This document shows positions 15,436 to 44,530 of a stretch of 64,000 nt of DNA, piece by piece. The position numbers were made by a program, and so were the translations under genes. The notes beneath the pieces were generated by a model. The model had not been told where the DNA came from, did no database searches, and saw nothing but the letters and a program-made list of their open reading frames with translations. Numbering within the stretch: position 1 is the stretch's first letter; each line of letters starts with the position of its first letter. Source of the DNA: an uncultured Lachnospiraceae bacterium (GTDB taxonomy: Bacteria > Bacillota > Clostridia > Lachnospirales > Lachnospiraceae). The DNA lies in NCBI GenBank assembly GCA_900316165.1, contig ONBW01000008.1, positions 2,135 through 66,134 on the forward strand, written 5' to 3'.

Positions 15436-15875
15436 TGACAGAACAGGGTAGGATCTTAGGGCTTGATTATGGGTCTAAAACTGTGGGCGTAGCAGTTTCT
15501 GACCCTCTTTTTATAACTGCGCAGGGAATTACAGTTATTACCCGTAAGCATCCCACGAAGTACAGACAGACTATAGCAGCTATACGTGAGATCTGCGAAG
15601 AGTATCATATCACTCGTATAGTCTTAGGCCTCCCATTGGGATTAGACGGTATCGAAGGGGGCAGATGCACTGCTACGAGAGAGTTTGGAAGCCTGCTAGA
15701 GGAGAAACTTTCGATTCCTGTGGATTATCAGGATGAGAGATTTACGACTATTGAGGCAGAGAGTGTGATCAAGGCCGGGGGAAAGAAGGATCCACACGAC
15801 ATCAAATCGACAGTGGATCAGGCAGCAGCAGTTCTTATTTTAGAGACATATATGCTTAGACATGGAAAAAATTAG
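15435..15875 (+). CDS. ruvX: Holliday junction resolvase-like RuvX (YqgF)
   Basis: ILGLDYGSKTVGVAVSD N-terminal motif. The ATG overlaps the ireB TGA (TGATG). Confidence 0.85.
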   Translation: MTEQGRILGLDYGSKTVGVAVSDPLFITAQGITVITRKHPTKYRQTIAAIREICEEYHITRIVLGLPLGLDGIEGGRCTATREFGSLLEEKLSIPVDYQDERFTTIEAESVIKAGGKKDPHDIKSTVDQAAAVLILETYMLRHGKN

Positions 15876-16122
15876 TTTTTTTGATGAAGAATCCGGTGAA
15901 GAGCAGGATTTTTATATATTATCTGAGACAGTTATAAATCAGCAGAGCTACCTATTGGTTACAGACCAGGATCCTGACGAACAGGAGGAGACTGACTGTT
16001 ACATCATGAAGAAGATGGCTGAATCGGATGGTGAGATCTCGTATGAATTTTTAGAGGATCAGAAGACCATCGATGCGGTTTTTGCTGTGTTCAGAGAGGA
16101 ACTAGAAGACACAGAAGAATAA
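15862..16122 (+). CDS. DUF1292-family small acidic protein
   Basis: An 86-aa acidic protein in the conserved position after ireB-ruvX, as in Bacillus yrzL-yrrK-yrzB. Confidence 0.65.
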   Translation: MEKISFFDEESGEEQDFYILSETVINQQSYLLVTDQDPDEQEETDCYIMKKMAESDGEISYEFLEDQKTIDAVFAVFREELEDTEE

Positions 16123-16206
16123 AGGCATTTTTTTAAGAAGGCAGTACAGCTCTTTTTTGCGTGCAAAAATACCGCCTTTATAAAAGTCTGCCTAAACGGA
16201 GGTAGA

Positions 16207-27449: not shown

Positions 27450-27601
27450 CGCAGAGTAGACTGTATTACGTTAAGTGTCTGGTGAACAGGGAGTTGTCAT
27501 CAGAACGAAGAGCCATGCGGCTCGCGGTTTTATGGTCGCATCCCGCTGCTGCATGGAAGAGACGCCCTCCTGTGCGGTTAAAGGACTTACTGCAAAGGAG
27601 G
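27450..27601 (+). promoter_or_regulatory. THF (tetrahydrofolate) riboswitch aptamer (about 27450-27552) with an RBS-sequestering expression platform
   Basis: GCAGAGTAG..CGTTAAGTG..TGAAC.GGGAGTTGTC..AACGAAG..GCGG..GCATCCCGCTGC matches block-for-block the THF-I aptamer as I recall it from the Eubacterium siraeum structure (GGAGAGUAG..CGUUAAGUG..UGAAUGGGAUGUCGUC..AACGAAG..GCGG..GCAUCCGCUCC). The P1 helix is GCAG/CTGC. Downstream CCCTCCT (27556-27562) is complementary to the SD AAGGAGG (27595-27601). The element sits directly upstream of a folT-like gene. Confidence 0.88.
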
Positions 27602-27608
27602 TATTTTT

Positions 27609-28184
27609 ATGCAAAAATTCATTCAAAACATCAAGGACTCGGCAGCAGAGCTTAAGAATGTACGTGTCTTATGCACTGTGGCTATGCTGATGGCATTATC
27701 AGCCGTACTCAATATGGTCTCAACGATCAACATCGGACAGTTTATCCATATCGGTCTCGCATGGATCCCGATAGTACTTATAGATGCAATGTTCGGGCCT
27801 TTAACTGGAGCGCTCTCAGCAGCAGCACTAGATATAATAAACTACTGCATAAGGCCGGACGGGGCATTTTTTCCTGGGTTTACTATAGGAGCGATGCTCT
27901 CGGCCTTCATTTATGGACTTTTCCTTTATAGAAAACAGATTGGTATCGTAAGGTGCTTTGCAGCTCATGGAGTAGTAACAGTAGTAAATAATCTGATACT
28001 GAACACTCTTTGGCTTTCAATCCTATATGGGCAGGCATTTAAGGCGCTTCTAATCCCAAGGCTTGTAAAGAACCTGATCACCTGGCCTATATACAGCATC
28101 ATGCTTTTTGCAATCATTACTGCTATGGAGAAAACTAAGGCAGCAGCACTTTCAAAAGCCGGTCATTATCCGAAGGCTTCATAA
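27609..28184 (+). CDS. folT: Folate-family ECF transporter S component
   Basis: A 191-aa integral membrane protein with about 5-6 TM helices. Its N-terminus is like FolT S-components, and it is preceded by a THF riboswitch. Confidence 0.75.
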   Translation: MQKFIQNIKDSAAELKNVRVLCTVAMLMALSAVLNMVSTINIGQFIHIGLAWIPIVLIDAMFGPLTGALSAAALDIINYCIRPDGAFFPGFTIGAMLSAFIYGLFLYRKQIGIVRCFAAHGVVTVVNNLILNTLWLSILYGQAFKALLIPRLVKNLITWPIYSIMLFAIITAMEKTKAAALSKAGHYPKAS

Positions 28185-29223
28185 AGCAGATGCGGATATA
28201 GCGGTCAGAAAGGAATGGGAAGGTAGAGCAGTCGCGGATCATCAGCTTCTCACGGATGCACTTCTCAAAGAGTGAATGGCTGTCTTCAGATGGCGTCAGT
28301 ATCTGAAGCAGCATGAAGTTCGCATTAGGGTAGTACGGTTTAAAAACCGTACTATTTTTAAATATATCAAAAAGCCTTTTTCTCTCTGAAAAAATAAGGT
28401 CCTTTGTGGCATTGATGTAATCCGCATCTGAGAACATTATTTTCCCAGCCTCCTCGGCAAGAGATGAGATCATCCATGGATTCTTCTTCTGGTTTATCTC
28501 CTTCAGGATATCTTCGTTTCCTGTTACAGCGTAGCCGAGACGCAGTCCAGGAGCTGCAAAAAACTTCGAAGTTCCGCGCAGTACGATGATATTGTTGTAG
28601 TCAGCGGTAAGTGGGATAGATGTGATCTCCGGCTCGTTCTTCGCAAACTCGACATAGGTCTCATCTACCATCACATAGATGTCATGCTCCTTGCAGGAGT
28701 CGAGAATCCGTCTCATGTCCTTATTTGTAATAACAGATGAGGTAGGGTTGTTTGGGTTGCAGAGCACGATAAGGTCGAGATCGTCTGAGAGATGCTCTAT
28801 GAAGTCATCAACCGGCAGCTCAAAGTTATTCTCCTCACGGAGAGGGTAGTAGGAGGTGCGTCCGCCACTTAAGGTAATGCTCCTTTCATACTCTGAATAG
28901 GTAGGCCCAAGGATCATGGCTTTTTTTGGAGCTGTGACCTCTATAAAGAGTGAGATCAGCTCTGTAGAGCCGTTACCTACGATGATATTCTTCTCATCGC
29001 AGGAGGCATATGAGGCTATAGATTTCTTCAGGTCAGCATAGTCTCTGTCAGGGTAGGTCTCTATGCAGTGGATGTGATCAGACAGGTCACTCGCGAGCTT
29101 TGGCGAGATTCCAAGAGGATTTACGTTTGCAGAGAAGCTTACGATTTCCTCCTTTTTGATTCCGTACATTTTTTCAATAAGCTCAAGGTCGCTTCCATGG
29201 AAGTGGTCTTTGTGTTTTAACAT
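28135..29223 (-). CDS. PLP-dependent aminotransferase, class I/II (histidinol-phosphate aminotransferase / CobD threonine-phosphate decarboxylase family)
   Basis: FSANVNPLGISP, YPD, NPNNPTS and the PLP-Lys motif RGTSKFFAAPGLRLGY. The preferred start is the ATG at 29223 (MLKHK), 9 nt after AAGGAG. The tracker start at 29274 adds a hydrophobic junk extension. Confidence 0.75.
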   Translation of the reverse strand: MLKHKDHFHGSDLELIEKMYGIKKEEIVSFSANVNPLGISPKLASDLSDHIHCIETYPDRDYADLKKSIASYASCDEKNIIVGNGSTELISLFIEVTAPKKAMILGPTYSEYERSITLSGGRTSYYPLREENNFELPVDDFIEHLSDDLDLIVLCNPNNPTSSVITNKDMRRILDSCKEHDIYVMVDETYVEFAKNEPEITSIPLTADYNNIIVLRGTSKFFAAPGLRLGYAVTGNEDILKEINQKKNPWMISSLAEEAGKIMFSDADYINATKDLIFSERKRLFDIFKNSTVFKPYYPNANFMLLQILTPSEDSHSLFEKCIREKLMIRDCSTFPFLSDRYIRICFMKPSDNDRLLKVLLP

Positions 29224-29242: not shown

Positions 29243-29271
29243 TTGAATAAAAACAGAAAAACATTTATAAT
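29243..29271 (+). promoter_or_regulatory. Sigma-A-type promoter candidate for the four-ORF cassette
   Basis: TTGAAT (29243-29248), an exactly 17-nt spacer, then the consensus TATAAT (29266-29271). It lies 44 nt upstream of the TTG start at 29315. Confidence 0.55.
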
Positions 29272-29314
29272 CATTATAGTATTTTTGACATTTATGTAAA
29301 GAAAGGACTTTTCT

Positions 29315-32300
29315 TTGAAAGAAAAAATCCAGCGTCTCGCAGAGGGAGAATTCGAGCGCAGCTTTCCTAAGCCGGCTGCTGAGCCGGCCTCTATAGTAAA
29401 AAGCGGGTCTGAGGGCCGTGATATAGATGGAAGTCTGCGTATCTATACAGAAAGTGACACACCGCTCGAGGGTGAAATCTGCTCTTCGAACGCGTACGTT
29501 ACTGTAGAGCAGAGTGATTTTTCAGGCAGAGAGATTAGTCTTTACTTTTGTGCACATACTGCGGGGTTCTGCCCTGGAATAAAGCTTGACGGTCATTTTA
29601 CTGTTATTACTGACGGCTATAACCTTACTATTCCATATTCATTTACAGTTACGGAGAAGTATCCGGAGACTGTGAGTGGGGAAATCCGTGAGTTATCAGA
29701 CCTCTATGAGCTTGAAAAAAATGACCGCAGGTCAGCAGTTTCTGTTTTTGCATCTGATGATTTCAAGAGACTTCTAAAAAGGCATTTTCAAGAGGCTTTT
29801 CTAAGCTACAGGGCTCTTACCGGTACTATGGGATATACTCCTATGGCCTTGGAGAGCTTTCTGTGTGAGAACAGCTTAAAGGATCCTATCCGTCTGCATG
29901 TTTTCCCAAGTGACTTAAATTACTATGCAGTAAATGAGGATGTAAAGGAAACTTTCCGTATCACGAGAAATACTGACGGATATGTATCGCTTACTTTTTC
30001 TGTGCCAGAGAACAGTTTTGTGACCCTTGGCATGACAGCAGCCAGCGATGATGATTTTTATGGCGGTACGCTTGAGGTACCTTTCTTTATAAAAAAAGAT
30101 CGTATCCATCCGGGGGTAAACACTACAAAACTTACCATTAAGGGAAACGGAGTCCTGATAGAAAAGGAGATAACTGTTTCCACCTATGGTCGTGATGAAA
30201 AAGTATACGAAACGGGCCGCGAGAAAAAGCGGATTATTTGTGACGCATTAAAAGATTACTTAGATTTCAGACTGAGAAAGACTGATACAGATCAGTTCTT
30301 AAAGTCCGTTACAGAGACTACCGAATATTTTCTAGATAAAAATCCAGCGGATATTTTTTCACTGCTGTACCGAACCATGGCTCAGATCGTAGCAGGTGAT
30401 AAGAAGGATGCACTTGTTACGATAGCTATGCTTAAAGAGATGATTACCGAGAAGAAGAGCTTCGAGTGGGCTTTTCTTCTGTACCTCTGCTCGCTTCTTG
30501 ATTCTGAGGAAGGATATGTAGACAGGATTACTGCAGAGATAGAGGCTATCGAAAACGAACTTGATGATGCGAGGGTTTTCTGGTTCCTTCTCTTCCTTAA
30601 AAAGGAGTACAGCGAAAACCCGCTTAAGCGTCTTTCCGATATCAGGAAGTGGATTAACAAAGGCCATCATTCACCGGTTCTCTATGCTGAAGCACTTGAT
30701 GTGATGAATGCCTATCCGCAGTATATAGGGCAGCTTGACAGCTTCTCACTTGCAATTCTACGGTTTGGACAGAGGAACGGAGTTTTAAGCCGTGAGATTG
30801 TGCCGTATATCACAGAGTTCCTCTATGACATGAAGGATTATAGTATTGCTGTCTTTGATTTTGCAGGAAAGCTGTTTGACAGGTATGATGATACGTCTCT
30901 GCTTTCAGCAATTATCTCTTACCTCTTAAGGAACAGGTGCATCGGGAAAGAGTATGCTATCTGGTACAAGAGAGGCATTGAGTTAGACCTGAATCTGACA
31001 GGCATCTATGAGAATTACATGTACTGTATCGATGAGTCAGATACGGATATGCTGCCACGCCTGCTGCTCCTTTATTTTTCCTATGATGATGGAGAGCTGT
31101 CTGAGGACAAACGAAAGTATCTGTACGCTAATGTTATCATGTACAAGGACAGACAGCCGGATATCTATGATTCTTACAGGAGTCAGATAGAACGGTTTGC
31201 GATAGAAAAGCTTCAGCAGGGGAGTATTGACGATTATCTCTCAGTTATCTACAGAGATTTGTATAAGAGCAATTTCTTTGATCAGGATTTGAAAGAAAAG
31301 CTGTTTGAGCTTAAGGATGCGCTTAAGATTTTCTGCCTCTCACAAGATTCCGGACAGCTCAGTGTATATACAAAGCAGCTTGATAAGCCGTATGTCACTG
31401 AGCTTCATAATCATTCAGCTATAATTGGGATAGGAAGTGATGACTTCTTTACTGTCCTTACGAATCAGAATGGTATTTTCGCTGAAAAGGATTTATTTTA
31501 TACTGAGAAGCTTCTTCCAGAGTTATCGGATGAGACAGGCGATAATGCTTCAAAAAAAGTCTGGGTAACGCCGGATCTCGAGCAGTCACATGCTGATGGG
31601 CTTATATGTACAAATGATTTTAATGATATAAGTATTGATGAAATCCCAGGGGATCTCAACCTGAAGGACAGAGATCTGCCAGTTGTTTCGTTCTACTTGA
31701 GAACTCTTATCGAGAGGGAGAGGCTTGACCAGGCATTTGCTCTTATGAAGGAGGTCTATGCCTTTAACGTTCCTGAGAACCTGCTTCTACATCTCGCGAC
31801 AGGACTATGCAGGGAGGCTGGAGAGGACCAGTTCCTTGTAGCGCTCTGTACCTGGCTTATAGCCCACTATCTGTCAAATACTGTGACTCTCGAGTATCTG
31901 TGCAGGTTTTACAAGGCCCCTACAAAAGAGCTTATTTCTGTCTATAAGTATGCGAATGCCAGGGGACTTGATGTAAGTGATCTGTCGGAAAGAATTTTGG
32001 AGCAGGAGATATATGAGGAGGGTGATTATCCGGAGACTGGAGATATCTTTATGTCATGCAGGCTTGTTCACCCTGATAATGAGCTTAACATGGCTGCACT
32101 GACTTATTTTTCAGACAGGTATGTACTTGGAAAAACATTAAATCCTGATGATGAATTCTTTAAGCTGATAAAAGACGCTTATGTATCAGATAATGAGATA
32201 AATGCCAGTGTAAAGACTGCGCTCTTAAAGCACTATTCCACCATGGGGACCTTAAAGCCAAATGAGCTTAGTATAGCAAGAGAGCTTCTTACGGAGAATG

Positions 32301-32734
32301 TACTGGACGGGACATATTTTTCATTCTACAAAAAAATGGACATCCGTCTTGTAAGAGAGTTTGGATTCTACGAGAGAGTATTTATTGAGACAAAGGCTGA
32401 TTTCGGGCAGCAGCTTACTGCAGTTTTATACCCTGGTGAGGAAAATGAGAAAATCCTGGATATGGATGAGGTTTATGATGGCATCTATATCACGTCGCTT
32501 GTACTTTTCAGAGGAGAGAGCGCCTGGTACGAGATCAGGGATGAGAAGGGTGAGCGCCTTGGCAGCGGTACCGCTTCAAATCAGGACTATCCTGATGGGG
32601 TCGTAAAGAGCAGATTCGGACTTATAAACGAGATCTCGGAGGAAGAGAAGGCGGGGAACGAAGCACTGTCTGAGTGCCTTAAAGAGTACCTTAAGCTTGA
32701 TATATCCTCAGATGACCTTTTTTCGATGGTGTGA
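29315..32734 (+). CDS. Uncharacterised 1139-aa protein: N-terminal beta-sandwich-like modules, a long alpha-helical repeat body and a C-terminal beta-rich module (cassette protein A)
   Basis: A long uninterrupted ORF. The only start-type codon after the in-frame stop at 29297 is the TTG at 29315, preceded by GAAAGGA. I recognise no catalytic motif. From memory it resembles a Clostridia-restricted family of unknown function (possibly Pfam DUF5717), which is unverified. Confidence 0.6.
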   Translation: MKEKIQRLAEGEFERSFPKPAAEPASIVKSGSEGRDIDGSLRIYTESDTPLEGEICSSNAYVTVEQSDFSGREISLYFCAHTAGFCPGIKLDGHFTVITDGYNLTIPYSFTVTEKYPETVSGEIRELSDLYELEKNDRRSAVSVFASDDFKRLLKRHFQEAFLSYRALTGTMGYTPMALESFLCENSLKDPIRLHVFPSDLNYYAVNEDVKETFRITRNTDGYVSLTFSVPENSFVTLGMTAASDDDFYGGTLEVPFFIKKDRIHPGVNTTKLTIKGNGVLIEKEITVSTYGRDEKVYETGREKKRIICDALKDYLDFRLRKTDTDQFLKSVTETTEYFLDKNPADIFSLLYRTMAQIVAGDKKDALVTIAMLKEMITEKKSFEWAFLLYLCSLLDSEEGYVDRITAEIEAIENELDDARVFWFLLFLKKEYSENPLKRLSDIRKWINKGHHSPVLYAEALDVMNAYPQYIGQLDSFSLAILRFGQRNGVLSREIVPYITEFLYDMKDYSIAVFDFAGKLFDRYDDTSLLSAIISYLLRNRCIGKEYAIWYKRGIELDLNLTGIYENYMYCIDESDTDMLPRLLLLYFSYDDGELSEDKRKYLYANVIMYKDRQPDIYDSYRSQIERFAIEKLQQGSIDDYLSVIYRDLYKSNFFDQDLKEKLFELKDALKIFCLSQDSGQLSVYTKQLDKPYVTELHNHSAIIGIGSDDFFTVLTNQNGIFAEKDLFYTEKLLPELSDETGDNASKKVWVTPDLEQSHADGLICTNDFNDISIDEIPGDLNLKDRDLPVVSFYLRTLIERERLDQAFALMKEVYAFNVPENLLLHLATGLCREAGEDQFLVALCTWLIAHYLSNTVTLEYLCRFYKAPTKELISVYKYANARGLDVSDLSERILEQEIYEEGDYPETGDIFMSCRLVHPDNELNMAALTYFSDRYVLGKTLNPDDEFFKLIKDAYVSDNEINASVKTALLKHYSTMGTLKPNELSIARELLTENVLDGTYFSFYKKMDIRLVREFGFYERVFIETKADFGQQLTAVLYPGEENEKILDMDEVYDGIYITSLVLFRGESAWYEIRDEKGERLGSGTASNQDYPDGVVKSRFGLINEISEEEKAGNEALSECLKEYLKLDISSDDLFSMV

Positions 32735-32737
32735 TAT

Positions 32738-33985
32738 ATGGAAAATGAAGTGAGGACAAGAACAGGAGCCGTCTACGGAATAGATATTTCTGAAAGTCGT
32801 GCTCTTATAAGCTACATTAATCCGGATGGAGCTGAGCCTACTACAGTTTCCTTAGTTTATGGTGAGGAAAATTACTGTGTTCCGATGGCCGTGACAAAGC
32901 GGGATGGAATAGGGCAGTGGTATACAGGTGAAGAGGCTTTAAGCAGGGCTGATCAGAGCGGTTTTACTCCGGTAAAGGATTTTTATAAGAAAGCTCTTTC
33001 AGGAGAGAAAATTATAGTCGATGCCGGACTTTATGAGGCTTCGGATATTTTTACCATATACCTAAGAAGACTCATTGAGATGGCACAAAGCATGAGCGGA
33101 GTCCGTGAGACTGAGATGATAGTCTTCTGCGTGCAGGATGTTACAAAGGAGGCTGTATCACTCTTTACTGCGGCTGCGTCAAGAATCGGTATTGACATTC
33201 AAAAAACAGCTGTAATCGATAAAAAGGAAGCTTTTTACTATTACTGTCTCTCACAGCTTTCGGAGCTTAAAAAGCATGATATGGCGCTTTTTGAGTGCGA
33301 GGACTTAAATGTCTATGCGCTGAGACTGAATAAGAACTCTTCCGATGATGGTGAGCTTATAACTCTCGATGAGAAATATTTTACACTTGATGAGAATGAT
33401 AAGGACTCGTCATTTGACGACGTTTTAAAGCAGATGCTTGCTGGGAATCAGGTTTCTGCTATATATCTGACCGGTTCAGGATTTTCTAAAGAGTGGATGA
33501 ATCTCTCTCTACAGAGAGCACTCTTAGGACACAGGGTATTTATCGGACAGAACCTCTATACCAGAGGGGCTGTGTATGCAGCCATGGTAAAGACGAAGAG
33601 TGTAAACTGGGGCTATACCTATGTGGGAGACCACGAGCTTAAGCTTAATGTTTCTCTTAAGGTCTCAGACTTAAATGAGCTCAAGTTTTATCCTCTTATC
33701 AGAGCTGGTGAGAGCTGGTATGAGGAGAAGGGTGAGTGTGAGGCGATTCTCGATGGCTCACCTGAGGTCGAGATCTATATCGGAAAGCCTGATTCGAGAA
33801 AGACTGTTGTCTCTGTCTTAAAGCTTAAGGATCTTCCTGTAAGGGAAAACAGGCTGACCAGGCTTCGTATAACCGCAACCCCTGTCTCAGATAAAAAGGT
33901 AAGTATTAAGATCCTTGACCTGGGATTCGGAGAGATAGCCAGAGGAAGCGGAAAGACTTTTACTACTACGATTGGAATTGATTAA
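32738..33985 (+). CDS. Uncharacterised 415-aa protein with a degenerate Hsp70/actin-fold layout (cassette protein B)
   Basis: YGIDISESRALISY compares with Hsp70 IGIDLGTTNS. IVFCVQDVTKEAVSLFTAAASRIGIDIQKTAVIDKKEAFYYY compares with VITVPAYFND..AG..INEPTAAA. IYLTGSGFSK compares with VLLVGGSTR. The C-terminal beta-rich tail is ITATPVSDKKVSIKILDLGFGE. The start lies 3 nt after the stop of protein A. It is possibly Pfam DUF5716 (unverified recollection). Confidence 0.55.
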   Translation: MENEVRTRTGAVYGIDISESRALISYINPDGAEPTTVSLVYGEENYCVPMAVTKRDGIGQWYTGEEALSRADQSGFTPVKDFYKKALSGEKIIVDAGLYEASDIFTIYLRRLIEMAQSMSGVRETEMIVFCVQDVTKEAVSLFTAAASRIGIDIQKTAVIDKKEAFYYYCLSQLSELKKHDMALFECEDLNVYALRLNKNSSDDGELITLDEKYFTLDENDKDSSFDDVLKQMLAGNQVSAIYLTGSGFSKEWMNLSLQRALLGHRVFIGQNLYTRGAVYAAMVKTKSVNWGYTYVGDHELKLNVSLKVSDLNELKFYPLIRAGESWYEEKGECEAILDGSPEVEIYIGKPDSRKTVVSVLKLKDLPVRENRLTRLRITATPVSDKKVSIKILDLGFGEIARGSGKTFTTTIGID

Positions 33986-34780
33986 ATGGGTGAACTTATT
34001 CTATGTAAAAGGCCTATTGCGGCCGCGCCTTTTTATATCGAAAGCGTCTCTGTTAATATTTACTCGATTGAGGAATTGAGCTGGTTTATTTTTCACCATA
34101 CAGATATAATCGAGGCTGATTTTATCTCTGATGAGCTTATTAACTGGATATCAGATGAAGCAGGATACAGAGAGCTTGCAGAGAGGCTGCGTTCGGGACT
34201 AAACGCAAAGACTCCGTTTCATGTGCTGATAGAGATGATCCTCTCATCCTGCGGTTATCTGACACCTAAGGAGATAAAGGATACTGTACGTGAGGTTCAG
34301 CTTCAGGCCGGACTTTCTCCAGTTGAAAAGAAAAAGAAGCGGGCAGATCTCCTTATTAAAAACGGAAATATCAGGAAGGCAATAATTGCCTATCAGAACA
34401 TCCTGGCTTTGGGAGACTTAAAGAGAAATATCTATGGTGATATCTGCCACGATATCGGCTATGCATATGCCAGACTTTTTCTCTTTGATGAGGCAGCGGC
34501 CTGGTACAAAAAGGCATATGAGCACAACCTCAGTATAAAAAGTCTGATGCAGCTTCTCTTTGCTCTTATGGAGCAGAATGATGAAGAAAGTATTGCTGAT
34601 ATCGTAAATACCTATCATATCCGCGACGATGACTTGGAGAGGGCCAGGGCTGTATTTAAGGCAGCAGGCGAGACTAAAAAGATTGATGATGCTATCAAAA
34701 ATATAACCTCCGAAGACACAGACATCCATGACTTTGTAAATGGACTTAAGTCTGACTACATCAAAAGGTACGGAGCGTAA
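33986..34780 (+). CDS. Uncharacterised 264-aa helical / TPR-like protein (cassette protein C)
   Basis: TAAATG stop-start abutment on both sides. TPR-like helical hairpins are present (RKAIIAYQNILALGDL.., IGYAYARLFLFDEAAAWYKKAYEHN). Confidence 0.5.
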   Translation: MGELILCKRPIAAAPFYIESVSVNIYSIEELSWFIFHHTDIIEADFISDELINWISDEAGYRELAERLRSGLNAKTPFHVLIEMILSSCGYLTPKEIKDTVREVQLQAGLSPVEKKKKRADLLIKNGNIRKAIIAYQNILALGDLKRNIYGDICHDIGYAYARLFLFDEAAAWYKKAYEHNLSIKSLMQLLFALMEQNDEESIADIVNTYHIRDDDLERARAVFKAAGETKKIDDAIKNITSEDTDIHDFVNGLKSDYIKRYGA

Positions 34781-37615
34781 ATGTTTGGATTTGGAAAGAA
34801 GAAAAAAAATAAAAGCGAAGACGAGGTTTTCAAGGACTTAATAGATGAGGCAGCAGCGATTGATGACATCGACAGTCCAAAGAAAATAGAGCACATGATC
34901 CTCGATTCCTGTGAGCAGATTATTGCAGAGACAAAGGATATCGAAGGGAAAAAGGCCGAATACCGTGTACTAACAAAATACTTAGAGGACATAAAAAGGC
35001 TGAATGACTTAAAGCCCAGGGAAGCGTCAGCTGTAAAGAAGGCAGCTGCAGCCATAGAGAAGGCGCAGAAGAGCAGAAAGAGTTTTATGGATGCTCCAAA
35101 GGCTATCTCTGATGACGCTTATGACCTTATTGCTGAAAATGACAGCACAATTCAGCGTGAAATAGACCGCATGAAGGAGAATGAGGTCTATCAGGCAAAC
35201 ACGGCTGCAAAAATGCATGCCCTTGAAGCTGACAAGGGAGAATTGAAGCTCGATTTCGATGAAGCGACTGCGCAGAGTTCTTTTGCTAGAAAAATCTGCT
35301 ATCTGCTGATGGTTCTCTTTGCTGCTACTCTTATTTTTCTGATAGCGGCTGGAGGCGGCAGCGCATCGCAGACGGCGGGTATTTTTCTTCTTGCCTTTGG
35401 TGTGCTTGCGATGCTTATATTCATGTGGCAGGCATCTTCTATCAGGAGAAGGAAGGCTCTTCTTAGAGATTTAAACTCCACAATTACGACCTTAAATGTC
35501 ACAAGGATGGAGTACGCCAATGTCATAAAGGCTGTAAATGCTACTGCAGACAAGTACCACGTCCACTCATCTACAGAGCTTTTATATCTCTACAATGCTT
35601 ATGATGATTTTAACTACAGGAGAGAAAAGTTCGTAAAGGACGATGAGGACCTGACATACTGGGATGACTATCTTCTCCGTCTTCTTGCACCGCTGCGTCT
35701 CTATGACAGCAAAATCTGGCTTAAGCAGGCGGCTGCCTTAAATGATGAGGAAGCCATGAAGGATGTCCATAAGGAGCTTGTGGAGAAGCGTTCGGCGGTA
35801 AGAGAGCAGATCAGGCTCGAGACTCATCAGGTAAAGAGTGAACGTGATGAGATCGACAGGCTGATGAAGGAAGCAGACTTTTATGTACCTGAGATCATGG
35901 AGATAATAAAATCCGTAGACAGGCTCTGTGGACTTGACAGATTAAGAAAAGAAGAGGATGATAGTATCCTGAAGTCTCTTGATAAAGAAGAAAATGAAAA
36001 GAAGACTGCTTCAGAGGAAAAATCTGAAAAAACAGAAGAGGCTGTTCCAGAGGAAAAGCCTGAAAAAACTATAAAGACTGTTCCAGAGGAAAAACAGGAA
36101 AAGAATAAAAATAAGCCCGTAAGAAGGGCACAGAAAGAAGAGAAGAAACCAATGAAAGTAAGAACTCGTTTTGCACCATCACCTACAGGAAGAATGCACG
36201 TCGGAAATCTTCGTACGGCATTATATGCTTACCTTATAGCAAAGCATGCCGGCGGTGATTTTATCCTTCGTATTGAGGATACCGACCAGGAGAGATATGT
36301 CGAAGGCGCTGTAGATATCATCTACAGAACTATGAAGGAGACTGGTCTCGAGCATGATGAGGGACCTGATAAGGATGGTGGCTGCGGACCTTACGTGCAG
36401 AGCGAGCGTGTAAAGCAGGGCATATATATGAAGTATGCCAAGCAGCTTATCGATAAGGGTGAGGCTTATTACTGCTTCTGTACACCTGAGAGGCTTGAGG
36501 GCCTTAAGCAGGAGGTTGTAGACGAGAACGGTGAGAAGAAGACTATCTCTATCTATGACAAGCACTGTCTTCACCTGTCAAAGGAGGAGGTCGAGGCAAA
36601 CCTTGCTGCCGGAAAGCCTTATGTCATAAGACAGAACAATCCCCGTACAGGAACTACGACTTTCCATGACGAGATCTACGGAGATATCACAGTCGATAAC
36701 AGCGAGCTCGACGATATGATCCTTATCAAGTCAGACGGCTATCCTACCTACAACTTCGCGAACGTAGTAGACGACCATCTGATGGGAATAACCCACGTAG
36801 TAAGAGGAAACGAGTATCTGTCATCATCACCTAAGTATAACAGGCTCTATGAGGCCTTTGGCTGGGAAATCCCTAAGTATATCCACTGCCCGCTTATCAC
36901 AAATGAGCAGCACCAGAAGCTTTCAAAGAGGAGCGGCCACTCATCATTTGAGGACCTTGTGGATCAGGGCTATCTGACAGACGCTATCGTAAACTTCGTG
37001 GCACTCCTTGGATGGAGCCCTGAGGATAACCAGGAGATCATGAACCTTCCTGAGCTCATCGAGAAGTTTGACTATCACCATATAAGCAAGTCTTCTGCTG
37101 TATTCGATACTACAAAGCTTAAATGGATGAACGGCGAGTACATCAAGAAGATGGATCCTGCAGCTTTCTATAAAAAGGCTCTTCCGTATATAAATGAGAC
37201 TGTTAAGAGAGACTGTGACAAGGAGAAGATTGCGTCCTTAGTCCAGTCGAGGATAGAGATCTTCCCTGATATCGCAGAGCTTATCGATTTCTTCGAGGAG
37301 GTACCGGAGTACGATACATCTCTCTACATCAATAAGAAAAATAAATGCACAGAGGAAAATTCCTTAGAGCTTTTAAAATCGGTTTATCCGGTTCTTGAGG
37401 CGCAGGATGACTATTCTAACGATGCACTCTTTGAAACTCTTAAGGCATACGCTACCGAAAAGGGAGTAAAGGTAGGCTTTGTTATGTGGCCGCTTCGTAC
37501 AGCGCTTTCTGGAAAAGCTTCTACACCGGGCGGTGCGACCCAGATAATGGAGATTCTTGGAAAGGATGAATCTCTTAGGAGAATTGAGGCAGGAATAAAG
37601 AAGCTCGAGGGCTGA
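34781..37615 (+). CDS. gltX: Single 944-codon ORF: a 457-aa coiled-coil protein with two TM helices and a Glu/Lys-rich linker (cassette protein D), fused in frame to glutamate--tRNA ligase
   Basis: There is no stop codon anywhere between the ATG at 34781 and the GluRS module. TM helices are [21 protein letters not shown] and [20 protein letters not shown] (about nt 35294-35432). The E/K-rich linker spans about nt 35960-36151. GluRS begins at [23 protein letters not shown]. Confidence 0.7.
36152..37615 (+). CDS. gltX: Glutamate--tRNA ligase module (487 aa if translated from the internal ATG at 36152)
   Basis: HIGH-type motif [11 protein letters not shown] and KMSKS-type motif KLSKRSG. From this ATG the length matches normal bacterial GluRS. 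Only a weak purine-rich SD-like stretch (AGAAAGAAGAG) precedes the ATG. Confidence 0.85.
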
Positions 37616-37637: not shown

Positions 37638-39461
37638 ATGGGAAAGACTCTTTCTAAAGAACAGCAGATGGCTGTAAGTCACTTCAGAGGGCCCTGTCTA
37701 TGCATGGCGGGGCCGGGAAGCGGCAAAACCCTTGTTATCACTGAGCGAATCAGCTCACTTGTGAAGTATAGGGGCATTGAGCCACGCAGGATACTAGTCG
37801 TCACATTCACAAGGGATGCCGCAGCATCCATGAAGAAGAGATGTGAGGACGAAAATCATATCTATCCATCACCTGCGTTTGGGACCTTCCATTCTATTTT
37901 TTATAATATCCTGCTTAAGGAAGGCAGGGTAAGACCGGAGAAGCTTATTTCAGGACGAAAGGCACTAGGTCTTTTATCGCTTTCCGTAAATGAGTGCGGC
38001 ATAAAAGAGACTGATAAGGACTTTTTTACGACCCTTCTTCGTGCAATCAGTTTCTACAAAAATACCGGAATCTTAGATGAAAACCTCTATCCCAATCAGA
38101 TAAATACAGCTGAGATGAAGCACATTATAGCTTCATTCAGGGGTCATACTGTCTGTGAGGGGTATTTTGACTTTGATGATATACTTGTGGAAACAAAGCA
38201 GTTTTTTAAGGATAATCCTGAAAGACTAGATCTGTGGAGACGGAGATTTCCATTTATCCTCGTGGATGAGGCACAGGATATGAACAGGCTTCAGTATGAC
38301 ATCATAACAGAGCTTGCAGGACCTGATAACAATCTCTTTTTAGTAGGAGACGACGATCAGGCCATATACAGCTTCAGAGGGGCTGATCCGAAGCTTCTTA
38401 TGCAGTTTAAGAGAGACTATCCTGATGCAGAGACTGTGATCCTTAATCAGAATTTCCGCAGTCATTCAATTATAGTGGAATCCTCGGCAAATCTTATCTC
38501 AGAAAACAAAGCCCGCTTTGAAAAGAATCTGAAGGCTTTTTCTGCCGAAAGAGGCTCAGTAGAAATCATCACAGCGGCAGATGAGCACGAGGAGGGAAGG
38601 CTTGTCGCTGGAAAAATAAACGAACTTCTTAAGGCTGGAGCAGACCCGGCTCAGATAGCTGTACTATATAGAAATCGTATGGTCAGTGCCTGTCTTATGG
38701 AGGAGCTTGCGAGGCTTTCAGACGAAGAAGGCGGAGGAGATTTATTATTCTATAAGAGCTTTGTGTTCAGCGATATCATGTCATATCTGTTGGTTTCACA
38801 GAAAGGAATTGTGGATAGGGAACATTTCTTAACGGCTCTTACTCATCCTGACAGGAATATAGCTCTTATAGGTTTAGGCAGGAAAGAAATTGATAAGAGA
38901 GAGTGGCTCTTTAAGATGCAGAAAACTGTCTTTAAAGAAGATGCAGAGGCATTTATCAGGGAAATCGATTTCCTGTCAAAGCTTTCTCCTGCGGCAGCGA
39001 TTAATTTTATCATAAGAAAAATGGAGTACGGTAAGTTCATCCGTGATTTTTCATACAGGAATGGGGTGGACGCCTCTATCTATTTAAAACATGCTGATAA
39101 TCTGGCAAAAAAAGCGCAGGGCTATAGAAAAATAGATAAATTCTGTGATGCAATGCTTGAGGAAAAGGACCATGCATTCTATACAGCGAGCCGGAAGCCA
39201 AAGTCTGAATCTGTCGGATACTATACTTTTCACGGCTCTAAAGGTCTTGAATTCGATACTGTCTTTATCATTGGAGCCTGCGACGGGATAACTCCGTCAG
39301 AGAAGGCTGATTCCATTGAGCGGATAGAAGAGGAGAGAAGGCTTTTCTATGTGGCGATGACCCGCGCGAAAAAGAGCCTCTATATCTCAGTTTCCGGCCG
39401 GTACGGCAATCACAGCTATTATCCTTCTCCGTTTATCAGGGAAGCTTTTGGAAATTTATAA
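37638..39461 (+). CDS. UvrD/Rep/PcrA-family ATP-dependent DNA helicase (short form, 607 aa)
   Basis: Walker A AGPGSGKT, motif II LVDEAQDMN, VGDDDQAIYSFRGA, NFRS, and C-terminal TFHGSKGLEFD and RLFYVAMTRAK. Confidence 0.8.
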   Translation: MGKTLSKEQQMAVSHFRGPCLCMAGPGSGKTLVITERISSLVKYRGIEPRRILVVTFTRDAAASMKKRCEDENHIYPSPAFGTFHSIFYNILLKEGRVRPEKLISGRKALGLLSLSVNECGIKETDKDFFTTLLRAISFYKNTGILDENLYPNQINTAEMKHIIASFRGHTVCEGYFDFDDILVETKQFFKDNPERLDLWRRRFPFILVDEAQDMNRLQYDIITELAGPDNNLFLVGDDDQAIYSFRGADPKLLMQFKRDYPDAETVILNQNFRSHSIIVESSANLISENKARFEKNLKAFSAERGSVEIITAADEHEEGRLVAGKINELLKAGADPAQIAVLYRNRMVSACLMEELARLSDEEGGGDLLFYKSFVFSDIMSYLLVSQKGIVDREHFLTALTHPDRNIALIGLGRKEIDKREWLFKMQKTVFKEDAEAFIREIDFLSKLSPAAAINFIIRKMEYGKFIRDFSYRNGVDASIYLKHADNLAKKAQGYRKIDKFCDAMLEEKDHAFYTASRKPKSESVGYYTFHGSKGLEFDTVFIIGACDGITPSEKADSIERIEEERRLFYVAMTRAKKSLYISVSGRYGNHSYYPSPFIREAFGNL

Positions 39462-41922: not shown

Positions 41923-43017
41923 TTAGGCCATATTTCTTACATAGTGATTCAAGAATACCTCTTTTAAGAATCCCTTCTCTGTAAGAGTCGATACAATCCC
42001 CAATATATCAAGAAGTGTAAGGCCGCATTCTGCCTGCACTTCGTCTATGCTTTTCGCATTAAAATCAAAAGCACTGTACACTTTTATCTCATCAGGCTTA
42101 AGGCCTGAATTTTTTATCTCTTCTTCGATATGCACTATGGCATCCGGATTGTAAGACAGTTCAAGCTCTTCTATGAGTGCCTCAGATGAGCGGATAATTC
42201 CGGCACCCTGAGATATGAGCTTATTGCATCCTGCACTTAAGGGGTCGGTTATTTTGCCAGGGAGGGCATAGACATCCCGGCCCTGGTCTAAGGCAAAGTC
42301 AGCGGTGATAAGGCTTCCGGAGCGTTCTCTGGCTTCAATCACTATAACTGCCCTTGAGAGTCCGCTTATAAGCCTGTTTCTGTCCGGAAAAAATTCCGGA
42401 AGAGGCTGTGTTCCAAGAGCAAATTCTGTTATTATCGCACCGTGCTTTGGAATCTCTGTGTATAGGTCTCTGTTTGTCTCAGGGTAGCAGATGTCAAGTC
42501 CGTTTGCGACGAAGGCATAGGTCTTTCCGCCTCCCTCGAGGGCTCCTCTCTGTGAGTAGGTATCTATGCCATATGCCATTCCACTTATTACAGAATAGTC
42601 GAAGGATGCAAGGTCTGAGGCTATTTTGCCAGCCATTACTCTACCGTATGAAGAGCAGCGGCGGGCACCTACCATAGCGACAAGCTTCTCATCGGGATCT
42701 GGTAGGCTTCCGTTGTAGAAAAGTGCGACAGGCGGTTCGTGAATGTATCGCAGCGGCTCAGGAAAAGTGCTGTCATAGCTTAAAACCAGGTTATATCCGC
42801 TTTCTGTGAAACGTCTGAAACTCTCTTTTAATTTTAGAGATGTAAGCTCCGTTCTAAAAGCACACAGCTCCTTTTCAGAGATTATCTCGTAGTGTAAAAT
42901 ATCGGCATCAGAGGCCTCAAGAAGCTTGAATACGGTAGGGTAAATCTCTAATAGCTTTCTCTTTTTTCCCCTTGTAAAATGTCTCGTAGATGAAAAACCA
43001 AACTCTTCAATAGTCAT
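41923..43017 (-). CDS. dprA: DNA-processing protein DprA (Smf)
   Basis: VGARRCSSYG, SGMAYGIDT, FPDRNRLISGLS and RSGSLITA motifs. An ATGA overlap joins it to the upstream comM stop. Confidence 0.9.
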   Translation of the reverse strand: MTIEEFGFSSTRHFTRGKKRKLLEIYPTVFKLLEASDADILHYEIISEKELCAFRTELTSLKLKESFRRFTESGYNLVLSYDSTFPEPLRYIHEPPVALFYNGSLPDPDEKLVAMVGARRCSSYGRVMAGKIASDLASFDYSVISGMAYGIDTYSQRGALEGGGKTYAFVANGLDICYPETNRDLYTEIPKHGAIITEFALGTQPLPEFFPDRNRLISGLSRAVIVIEARERSGSLITADFALDQGRDVYALPGKITDPLSAGCNKLISQGAGIIRSSEALIEELELSYNPDAIVHIEEEIKNSGLKPDEIKVYSAFDFNAKSIDEVQAECGLTLLDILGIVSTLTEKGFLKEVFLNHYVRNMA

Positions 43018-44530
43018 AGTGCTGCCTCCCAGAATCTGCGGTCAATAGTCCTGAAAAAACAGGCCTCCGCGATGTGCTCTTTTGTGATATCTTTTTCTCC
43101 GGCCAGGTCTGCTATCGTGCGTGAGACCTTAAGAATTCTGTAATAGCCTCTGGCTGTAAGCTCGAGCTTTACGAACATCTCTGCGACAAACTGTTTTATC
43201 TCTGAGTTCATGCGGCAGTATTCCTCTATATCAGCAGAGGGCACCTGAGAGTTGAAGTTATAGCTTTTATTCTTGTAGCGCTCATTCTGAATCTCAGAGG
43301 CCTCAACAACCCGTGATCTGATAGAGGCAGAGTCCTCATCATCTGAATCTCCCAAAAGCTCAGTGATGCCTATTTTTTTAGTCTCTACACAGATGTCAAA
43401 ACGGTCTAAAAGAGGCTGTGATATCTTTGAGAGATAGTTTCTTATCGAGCTTACAGAGCAGGTGCATCTGGTCGAAGGGTAGTAGCCACAGCGGCACGGA
43501 TTCATCGCAGCTGCAAACAGAAAATCAGCCGGGTATTCCTCCTGATACCTGTTCCTCACGACATTTATATGCCCCTCCTCCAGCGGCTGACGTAGAACCT
43601 CTAATACATCGCGCTTGAACTCTGGAAGTTCATCTAAAAAAAGTACACCATTGTGAGCCATGGTTATCTCACCGGGAGTTACGGCATTGCCGCCTCCTGA
43701 CATGGCTATGGCAGTTACAGTGTGATGAGGGCTCCTGAATGGACGAATAATTTTATCATACGAAAAATTCTTCCTTCCACTTACACTGTAGATCTTCATC
43801 AGCTCTAGCTTCTCATCGTTAGTGAGCGGAGGGAGAATAGAAGGCAGGCACTTCGCAATCATGCTTTTTCCGGCACCAGGAGGACCGTACATTAAGAGAT
43901 TGTGCATGCCGGCAGCAGCAATCTCACAGGCTCTTCTCGAGACCTTCTGGCCATGAAGCTCCTTAAAGTCCAAGTACCTGTCTTCACAGATATCGGAACT
44001 GAGCTCTGTATCGGTTTCGGGGATTTTTTTATGTAATCTATGAGCTCGCTTATAGATGAGACTCCGATGGAAGTCATGTCTGGAACAAGCGCAGCTTCAC
44101 TGAGATTTTCCTTTGGGATAATGCATTTAGTAAGACCTGCCTCGCGGGCAGAAAGAAGCATTGGGAGCATGCCTCGTACAGGGAGCACATCGCCTGACAG
44201 GGCTAGCTCACCTGATACGAAGGTATTTTTTAAGGAATCCGCTTTGAAGCAGCCCATCGCAAGAAGCACAGAGCAGGCCATAGGAAGGTCAAAACCACTG
44301 CCGCTTTTCTTCTCGTCTGCGGGGCTGATATTTACCGTGATGCGGCGGGCAGGAAGCGGCATTCCTATAAGCTTTAAAACTGTGCGGACGCGTTCCTTGC
44401 CCTCGCGTACCTCGGCTGCCAAACTTCCGACCATATCAAAAACAGGCAGACCTTCACTGACATCTGCCTCTACTGTGACGACGCTTGCCTTAAGGCCGCG
44501 CAGCGTCCCTGATTTAACCTGACTAAACAT
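43014..44530 (-). pseudogene. comM: YifB/ComM family Mg-chelatase-like AAA+ ATPase, interrupted by a frameshift at an A7 tract
   Basis: The N-terminal Lon-protease-like part is ORF 43892-44530. The AAA+ part (GPPGAGKSM, VLFLDELPEF) is ORF 43014-43973, in the -1 frame. The two frames overlap around the homopolymer at 44024-44030 (T7 on the + strand). Adding one A gives ...ELIDYIKKIPETDTELSSDICEDRYLDFKELHGQ... and a normal product of about 505 aa. Confidence 0.8.

Follow-up and report, generated by a model that had tools for sequence, protein, structure and literature searches.

We analysed a stretch of 64,000 nucleotides (nt) from an uncultured Lachnospiraceae bacterium (contig ONBW01000008.1, forward-strand positions 2,135 to 66,134), hereafter the window, with a focus on four consecutive genes, A, B, C and D, located immediately upstream of the gene for glutamyl-tRNA synthetase (GluRS, gltX). 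Gene order and sequence comparison indicate that A-B-C-D is an operon passed on by vertical descent, and Lachnospiraceae are the only family in which it has been seen to date. As to its product, we see an even chance that the four genes encode a non-enzymatic complex at the cytoplasmic face of the membrane, in which B, a protein with an Hsp70 fold, would act as a clamp and to which, in the Weimeria clade, GluRS would be tethered. The features of the locus, in window coordinates, are listed below.

29243..29271, + strand: candidate sigma-70-like promoter, with TTGAAT (29243-29248), a 17-nt spacer and TATAAT (29266-29271)
29315..32734, + strand: gene A, TTG start, 1139 amino acids (aa), with DUF5717_N and a DUF5717 C-terminal domain, no catalytic signature
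32738..33985, + strand: gene B, 415 aa, DUF5716, lidless Hsp70 fold in the model
33986..34780, + strand: gene C, 264 aa, an N-terminal domain and tetratricopeptide repeats (TPRs)
34781..37615, + strand: fused open reading frame (ORF) D-GluRS, 944 aa, with a stop codon only at the end of GluRS
34781..35938, + strand: D core, residues 1-386 of the 944-aa ORF, helical and predicted cytoplasmic N- and C-domains flanking a transmembrane (TM) hairpin
35294..35428, + strand: two-TM hairpin of D, residues 172-190 and 198-216, from a hydropathy scan
35939..36151, + strand: D-GluRS linker, residues 387-457, Lys/Glu/Pro-rich, seen in the Weimeria clade only
36152..37615, + strand: GluRS (gltX) module, residues 458-944, TIGR00464, with tRNA-synt_1c and Anticodon_2

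The four forward ORFs lie end to end between 29315 and 36151, with a spacing of 3, 0 and 0 nt. The junction between A and B reads TGA-tat-ATG, while B/C and C/D are both joined by TAAATG; coordinates and sequence agree here with the tight packing described in a first-pass annotation, made earlier from the letters alone. A scan of the cassette found no terminator-like site inside it. The promoter TTGAAT-17-TATAAT that the same annotation placed upstream of A is also there, though such a match is no rarer than chance: the AT-rich region contained 28 promoter-type matches compared to 27.0 +/- 5.2 in shuffled sequences, i.e. there was no excess. A promoter above A is plausible because of its position in a divergent intergenic gap of ~90 nt, and not because of the quality of the match.

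The genomes were scanned for B with one genome per species, and the loci were compared in 80 of the 220 genomes that encode B. All 80 loci belonged to Lachnospiraceae or to unclassified records of metagenome-assembled genomes (MAGs), the carriers including Pseudobutyrivibrio, Roseburia, Agathobacter, Lachnobacterium, B. fibrisolvens 16/4 and many MAGs. The nearest public locus was found in a Candidatus Weimeria MAG (Lachnospiraceae), with a protein identity of 94% for B. In an exhaustive profile search the B family comprised 1,699 clusters at 50% identity, and the named members were all Lachnospiraceae.

We observed by tblastn that the order A-B-C-D was present in essentially every locus with enough flanking sequence, and that the median gaps A/B, B/C and C/D were 10, 8 and 14 nt (67-70 loci), with many overlaps. 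An arrangement repeated with this order and spacing in about 70 genomes cannot reasonably be put down to chance; the orthologues of A-D are strictly syntenic rather than scattered, as expected if the first-pass annotation was right to treat them as one system. Two loci, L082 and L084, retained A-B-C-D at about 25% identity with entirely different flanks. Therefore, the four genes and not their neighbourhood make up the conserved unit. The flanks of L082 were an AP endonuclease gene and a MatE transporter gene. Locus L084 had an extra 136-aa ORF between C and D (positions 15721-16131 of that locus) with no Pfam match; a ValRS gene was located 2.6 kb downstream of its D.

Searches against Pfam assigned A to DUF5717_N (8e-174, 580 bits) and to the DUF5717 C-terminal family (4e-57, 194 bits) at a cut-off of 25 bits, and B to DUF5716_C (3e-83, 279.8 bits against a cut-off of 34.7, residues 128-412). 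The first-pass annotation was thus correct in likening A and B to DUF families. A and B are members of catalogued, functionally unannotated Pfam DUFs; C and D are without a family.

The AlphaFold2 (AF2) model of A, with a predicted local distance difference test score (pLDDT) of 86.4, contained four immunoglobulin (Ig)-like beta-sandwiches, at residues 20-113, 194-289, 669-775 and 1021-1088, and two TPR-like alpha-solenoids, at residues 299-665 and 788-1016. The earlier description of A as beta-sandwiches with helical repeats and no catalytic motif was right in its components and wrong in their placement: the sandwiches are not confined to the ends, and four sandwiches go with two solenoids. 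Foldseek related the N-terminal Ig pair to ASH/PapD-like domains (ciliary central-pair proteins, CEP192 SPD-2 and 2qsv) at about 1e-7, and the solenoids to the TPR assembly scaffolds Ski3, Ctr9, Naa15, UNC-45 and IFT-A at 1e-4 to 1e-5; these matches were local, with TM-scores of 0.07-0.14 when normalised to the query. In an alignment of 34 homologues the invariant columns were almost all aromatic or aliphatic, and no conserved constellation of His, Cys, Asp or Ser was visible. A hydropathy scan detected no hydrophobic segment in A, its profile produced only noise against the sequences of the Protein Data Bank (PDB), and a viral fold search returned only generic Ig/BACON matches. The model and the alignment support the view of A as a large, non-catalytic cytoplasmic scaffold built of Ig domains and TPR solenoids.

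The fold of B was assigned from its AF2 model (pLDDT 90.3; predicted TM-score, pTM, 0.81). The top 50 Foldseek matches in the PDB were, 50 out of 50, entries with Hsp70-family chaperones. Among them were DnaK (7e-19), entries of the ribosome-associated complex (RAC) with Ssz1 (7x3k_B, 6sr6, 5mb9), Hsp110, BiP and Hsc70, and the matches spanned the nucleotide-binding domain as well as the beta substrate-binding domain. The alpha lid was absent: the chain ends at residue 415, right after the beta-sandwich, and the model had no helix past residue 285. The nucleotide-binding domain of the model was compact, about 290 aa.

At the level of sequence, B had no match to Pfam HSP70 (PF00012) at E <= 0.1, and the family profile, run against the PDB sequences, reached only DnaK, at E 0.3, in the register GIDISESRALIS versus GIDLGTTNSVVS. 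An hhalign comparison of the B family with one DnaK sequence gave nothing useful, and hmmsearch with its filters off recovered only the register of the N-terminal GID motif. Across 57 diverse members of the family, the phosphate-1 loop reads G-I-D-[IL]-[NSG]-[DE]-[KR]-x-[AT] in place of GIDLGTTNS, the phosphate-2 region reads L-F-[DE]-x-x-G in place of DLGGGTFD, and the Thr-Thr and Gly-Gly-Gly-Thr signatures are missing. In low-scoring alignments the column near DnaK K70 is an invariant alanine (Ala86) with no conserved Lys, and E164, in the motif KE[SA]FYYY, plausibly corresponds to DnaK E171. The Hsp70/actin-fold layout that had been read from the sequence was upheld by the fold matches, with the ATPase motifs found degenerate. 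As modelled, B is Hsp70-like by fold and does not have the sequence features that define the family; we infer from the motifs that it is unable to run the canonical ATPase cycle, and at most it would work in the way of Ssz1.

One may ask if B is instead the core of an active, specialised Hsp70 machine, which would bind and hydrolyse nucleotide at a non-canonical site, with C and A as co-chaperones or substrate adaptors and D placing the machine at the membrane for the folding or insertion of particular membrane or secreted clients. Such a machine would account for a fold with an intact beta substrate-binding domain and for the conservation of E164 and of a G-[DE]-G-F motif; TPR proteins, moreover, are classic partners of Hsp70, and UNC-45 and Hsp90-associated TPR proteins were among the weak matches. 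We consider it unlikely, however, given that both phosphate-binding loops are without their Gly/Thr signatures in the 57 members, that B has no lid, and that the operon has no J-domain or GrpE-like protein (A, C and D gave no J-domain match to Pfam DnaJ). The compact nucleotide-binding domain also leaves little room for lobe IIB.

The N-terminal ~100 aa of protein C are strongly conserved, unrelated to TPR, and without a match to anything. They are followed by two to three TPR motifs at about residues 111-200. As a single sequence C matched TPR_2 at 1e-5 and 25.6 bits, under the Pfam cut-off of 27; the family profile reached consensus TPR proteins at 1.2e-7 over residues about 125-190, which confirms the helical, TPR-like character noted at the outset.

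Six of the 148 retrieved representatives of B clusters (P0285, P0327, P0363 and P0408-P0410, from other Lachnospiraceae lineages) turned out to be B-C fusion proteins of 684-765 aa, in which a full C follows the C-terminus of B. The C part of these proteins matched the C profile with E values from 1e-34 to 1e-77. One of the fusion clusters had 17 members, on dozens of contigs from the independent sources NCBI, ENA and Logan, and another fusion came from a Butyrivibrio MAG. Because the fusions are recurrent, they are the strongest evidence here that B and C act together physically. The first-pass annotation had suggested a stoichiometric membrane-associated complex, and with this independent support from the B-C fusions we infer the same.

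Protein D is the only one of the four with TM segments. A hydropathy scan placed them at residues 172-190 and 198-216, and the hairpin was kept in all nine homologues tested. Since the hairpin loop carries no charge and has positive charges on either side of the hairpin, both ends of D are predicted to be cytoplasmic. The scan and the sequence agree with the TM hairpin and the Glu/Lys-rich tail described before. D had no family in Pfam, and none of its 119 homologues carried a functional Pfam domain, two of them having a weak match to DUF6594. A Pfam scan of 28 homologues produced only weak, TM-driven matches (DUF6594, DUF2207_C), with no CAAD/CURT1 match among the 25 most frequent of the 61 Pfam families recorded at E <= 0.1 in these 28 members; the D profile gave only noise against the PDB sequences. 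In relatives D stops shortly past an SVDRLCGL motif, at a length of about 390-415 aa.

Besides these features, we observed a few conserved cysteines spread over three of the proteins, namely C334 of B (within GECE), C7 of C, and C44 and C383 of D. They might indicate an inter-subunit metal site.

In the window D (residues 1-457) has no stop codon and is in frame with a complete GluRS, so that the two make a single ORF of 944 aa. The first-pass annotation had D 'continue into gltX'; the two are indeed contiguous, and the absence of a stop codon makes the finding stronger than that statement. The GluRS part scored 500.6 bits against TIGR00464 (cut-off 289.95) and matched tRNA-synt_1c at 4e-103 and Anticodon_2 at 1e-45. 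Besides the window, five other species-level genomes (L002-L006), all of the Weimeria clade, have the fused ORF; their D cores were 62-85% identical to that of the window. In all other genomes D ends in a stop codon, and gltX lies within -2 to 210 nt, lies 3-6.5 kb off, or is absent within 10 kb; in most relatives D and gltX are separate genes, often just 1-60 nt apart or overlapping. Hence gltX is not always found downstream of A-D, and its link to them is lineage-specific. No T-box or other leader was found for gltX, the only Rfam match being a tetrahydrofolate (THF) riboswitch elsewhere in the window.

The linker from SVDRLCGLD to the GluRS methionine is Lys/Glu/Pro-rich and about 52 to 77 residues long. 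Among the six fused genomes it has undergone at least four independent indels, none of which shifts the frame or brings in a stop. In unfused relatives a canonical AAGGAG precedes the gltX ATG by 6-10 nt; in the fused genomes this place is taken by the coding sequence GAAAGAAGAG, and the canonical Shine-Dalgarno sequence is gone. Because the frame was kept through the linker indels and the Shine-Dalgarno sequence was lost, we think, from these sequence patterns, that the fused D-GluRS polypeptide is made. With both termini of D predicted to be cytoplasmic, the fused GluRS would sit at the inner face of the membrane.

The continuity of D and gltX could also be inconsequential: ribosomes would read through where a stop codon was lost, while translation starting at the ATG of GluRS itself would supply the working enzyme, and the fused polypeptide would be minor or degraded. 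This is a doubtful explanation, though one with a substantial minority share of the probability. It draws on the strict conservation of the GluRS methionine, on the purine-rich codons upstream (GAAAGAAGAG), which possibly form a weak Shine-Dalgarno sequence, and on the proximity or overlap of D and gltX in most relatives, so that a single mutation can fuse them. On the other hand, an inconsequential fusion would not explain why the frame has stayed open in six genomes, with D cores 62-85% identical, despite at least four changes of linker length, or why the strong Shine-Dalgarno sequence of unfused relatives has been lost in the fused genomes. In cyanobacteria, furthermore, the only functional GluRS can be a membrane-anchored one (PMC4893482).

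One contig, L081, was rejected as a counter-example to the fusion. It appeared to have a 355-aa D and a separate 583-aa GluRS, a split caused by a 10-N scaffold gap. The gap falls within D (L081, 6911-9752) and shifts the frame, and the public gene calls give a 'GluRS' starting inside D.

The proposed complex might work as follows. B, having no ATP-driven chaperone cycle, would permanently clamp a partner peptide in its open beta substrate-binding domain, in the manner in which Ssz1 holds the N-terminus of Zuo1 in the eukaryotic RAC, on which this step is modelled. The N-termini of C (MGELILC..PIAA.PYYIE) and of D (M.FF..KKKK), both of them very conserved, are candidates for the clamped segment. 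C would dock beside the C-terminal domain of B and bridge to the scaffold A, and the hairpin of D would pin the assembly to the membrane. The whole would be a platform that positions client proteins at the membrane or holds them there. D of the Weimeria clade would carry GluRS on a flexible linker, and a part or more of the cell's GluRS would be membrane-tethered beside the platform, in what would be a convergent counterpart of the CAAD-bearing aminoacyl-tRNA synthetases (aaRS) of cyanobacteria.

With respect to the clients, the GluRS fusion and the frequent adjacency of gltX are a hint towards translation, but the link is lineage-specific. The platform might serve to couple translation and membrane, bringing GluRS to the places where membrane proteins are made, by a covalent bond in Weimeria and by non-covalent contact in other lineages, possibly along with other translation factors or nascent chains. 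We regard this extension as decidedly improbable; if true, it would make the platform a prokaryotic analogue of RAC and of the eukaryotic multi-synthetase complexes.

Another version of the platform idea, for which we would likewise give only a slim chance, makes A-D a clade-specific scaffold of the cell envelope, the cell shape or the division site, with morphogenetic or flagellar-placement proteins as clients. Carriers such as Butyrivibrio, Pseudobutyrivibrio, Roseburia and Agathobacter are largely curved, motile rods, and a hairpin protein with long helical cytoplasmic arms next to a giant repeat scaffold resembles morphogenetic scaffolds in general. However, no division, cell-wall or flagellar genes were located beside any locus examined, and B resembles Hsp70 and not the polymerising actin-like proteins.

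Several observations count against the clamp and tethering proposal itself. For B, both E164 and the G-[DE]-G-F motif, which resembles the adenosine-binding GG, are kept in the family, so that B may yet bind nucleotide, and the loss of ATPase activity is deduced from motif loss via low-scoring alignments (E 0.3). For GluRS, the internal methionine is strictly kept, and the purine-rich codons upstream of it could support internal initiation. In Pseudobutyrivibrio gltX is not linked to A-D, and in several genomes of Roseburia and of unclassified Lachnospiraceae it is 3-6.5 kb away from D; the link may go back to an ancestral gene order and not to a function. Finally, 'platform' is a description and not a function.

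The two genes that border the fused operon are as follows.

28135..29223, - strand: CobD/HisC-like pyridoxal phosphate (PLP) aminotransferase, divergent left neighbour of A, identified by NCBIfam and synteny
37638..39461, + strand: PcrA/UvrD-like helicase, 22 nt past gltX, with its own GGGGGA Shine-Dalgarno sequence

The start of the aminotransferase gene was put at ~29223, as its homologues align from residue 18 of the longest ORF; the gene is the conserved left neighbour of A in most relatives. The pair of gltX and helicase genes is syntenic in most relatives that keep gltX, and the terminator scan found none between the two. The helicase is probably on the same transcript as gltX, so the transcript may extend past the four-gene cassette into the helicase gene.

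Other neighbours in the window encode a TrhP-like U32 protein, the chorismate synthase AroC, Tgt, AsnB, a large GlnA, FolT and a GlgX-like enzyme. These neighbours, and the lack of plasmid or true phage occurrences, confirmed the first-pass view of a housekeeping context that is neither mobile nor defence-related. The context matters for the idea that A-D is a conflict or anti-phage system, with A as a repeat-rich sensor, B as a switch, C as an adaptor and D as a two-TM, membrane-disrupting effector. Defence systems often contain large TPR sensors and two-TM effectors. The four proteins also diverge much faster than their neighbours: with respect to Pseudobutyrivibrio and related genomes the identity was about 27-29% for A, 43% for B and 33-41% for C and D, compared to 62-69% for the aminotransferase and 76-78% for GluRS. 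In addition, a few matches fell into GenBank records named 'Bacteriophage sp.'.

Still, we find a defence role very unlikely. PADLOC returned no match for A, B or D, and its single match for C (Cas11f, 0.003) was spurious; PHROGs had no matches for the cassette, and neither A nor B nor D fell into an NCBIfam family. A-D lack nuclease, protease, TIR and other effector domains, and a toxic effector fused to GluRS is implausible. In many genera the locus keeps its chromosomal place beside housekeeping genes, and its occurrence seems to span the clade without being patchy. There were no plasmid matches, and the two 'phage' records examined are UNVERIFIED entries with bacterial synteny, which in one of them includes gltX and helicase.

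Concerning the phage records, five unannotated 'Bacteriophage sp.' entries were matched in all. A phage origin was rejected, as both of the records examined are marked UNVERIFIED and both have the bacterial A-B-C-D order. They are L085 (MT835486.1) and L086 (MT835719.1), filed from human faeces as 'UNVERIFIED: Bacteriophage sp.', and L086 also has gltX and the helicase gene. Both are probably fragments of bacterial chromosomes filed as phage.

Two observations concern other parts of the window. The THF riboswitch was located at 27450-27550 (+), with 81 bits and E 4e-17, upstream of a gene for a folate-family energy-coupling factor (ECF) S-component at 27609-28184. In a ComM/YifB-like gene of the Mg-chelatase family (43014-44530, - strand) a 7-bp deletion around 44033, in an A-rich tract, leaves two overlapping ORFs, while the near-identical contig L081 has the gene intact, with 507 aa. 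The 5' part of the gene (about 44120-44530) is a patch of dense single-nucleotide polymorphisms relative to L081. Judged from these sequences, the split gene would be either a pseudogene or an assembly error.

The first-pass annotation had found no resemblance between the four proteins and a characterised protein, and no profile or fold match assigned A-D to a characterised machine. The literature searched had no paper on DUF5717 or DUF5716, and nothing relevant on Hsp70-like or TPR proteins in Lachnospiraceae or on a transmembrane GluRS in Clostridia. We rate the module as lying outside the known kinds of system, on the grounds of absence of evidence and of analogies at the fold level; no described system combines the parts of A-D. 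Several carriers (Roseburia, Agathobacter, Butyrivibrio, Pseudobutyrivibrio) are dominant producers of butyrate in the human gut and the rumen. If the proposal is true, B would show that bacteria, too, can reuse an Hsp70 fold for a structural subunit without catalytic activity, something known so far mostly from eukaryotes (Ssz1). Likewise, D-GluRS would be, within the literature searched, the first membrane-anchored aaRS fusion outside cyanobacteria, and it bears on the spatial organisation of tRNA charging in bacteria. The B-C and D-GluRS fusions offer concrete interaction hypotheses in organisms that are becoming genetically tractable.

Among the known systems, E. coli HscC is a specialised Hsp70 encoded beside a TPR/Sel1-like protein and membrane-anchored J-proteins. 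B shares with DnaK, HscA and HscC the two-domain fold and the N-terminal GID...S motif, and its E164 is plausibly the counterpart of DnaK E171. Unlike these proteins, B has no lid, no GTT or DxGGGT loops, no J-protein or GrpE, and no Pfam HSP70 match, and its length is about 415 aa compared to roughly 550-640 aa.

The solenoids and the N-terminal Ig pair of A match the folds of Ski3, Ctr9, Naa15, IFT-A and the ASH/PapD-like Ig proteins, which are non-catalytic assembly platforms. No sequence homology to these proteins was found, however, and the order Ig-helices-Ig-solenoid-Ig-solenoid-Ig is without a solved counterpart.

For the fusion, the closest parallel is CAAD, a domain of two TM helices and a coiled coil that anchors class I aaRS in cyanobacteria (PMC4893482); the GluRS version arose when the gene fused with that of a neighbouring membrane protein, and none was found outside cyanobacteria (PMC4893482). 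CAAD-aaRS and D-GluRS both combine a helical module that has two TM segments with a class I aaRS, GluRS among them, and in both the anchor has a structural and not a catalytic role. The differences are that D has no detected homology to CAAD/CURT1, that its fusion is N-terminal and runs via a long disordered linker, that D belongs to a four-gene module, and that the host is a member of Bacillota without thylakoids. Since D lacks CAAD homology, the likeness between D-GluRS and CAAD-aaRS would be a case of convergence.

The closest parallel for B is the RAC, formed by Ssz1 and Zuo1. Ssz1 has no lid, does not hydrolyse ATP, and binds an N-terminal motif of Zuo1 as a pseudo-substrate in its beta substrate-binding domain, so that the two form a stable heterocomplex (PMC7083937). 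B is likewise an atypical, lidless Hsp70, and the RAC/Ssz1 entries were among its best fold matches. On the other hand, A-D is bacterial, has no J-domain partner, would be tethered via the two-TM protein D and includes the additional 1139-aa scaffold A, and a link to the ribosome has been shown for RAC only. Moreover, the phosphate loops of B are more degenerate than would be required of an Hsp70 that merely does not hydrolyse ATP.

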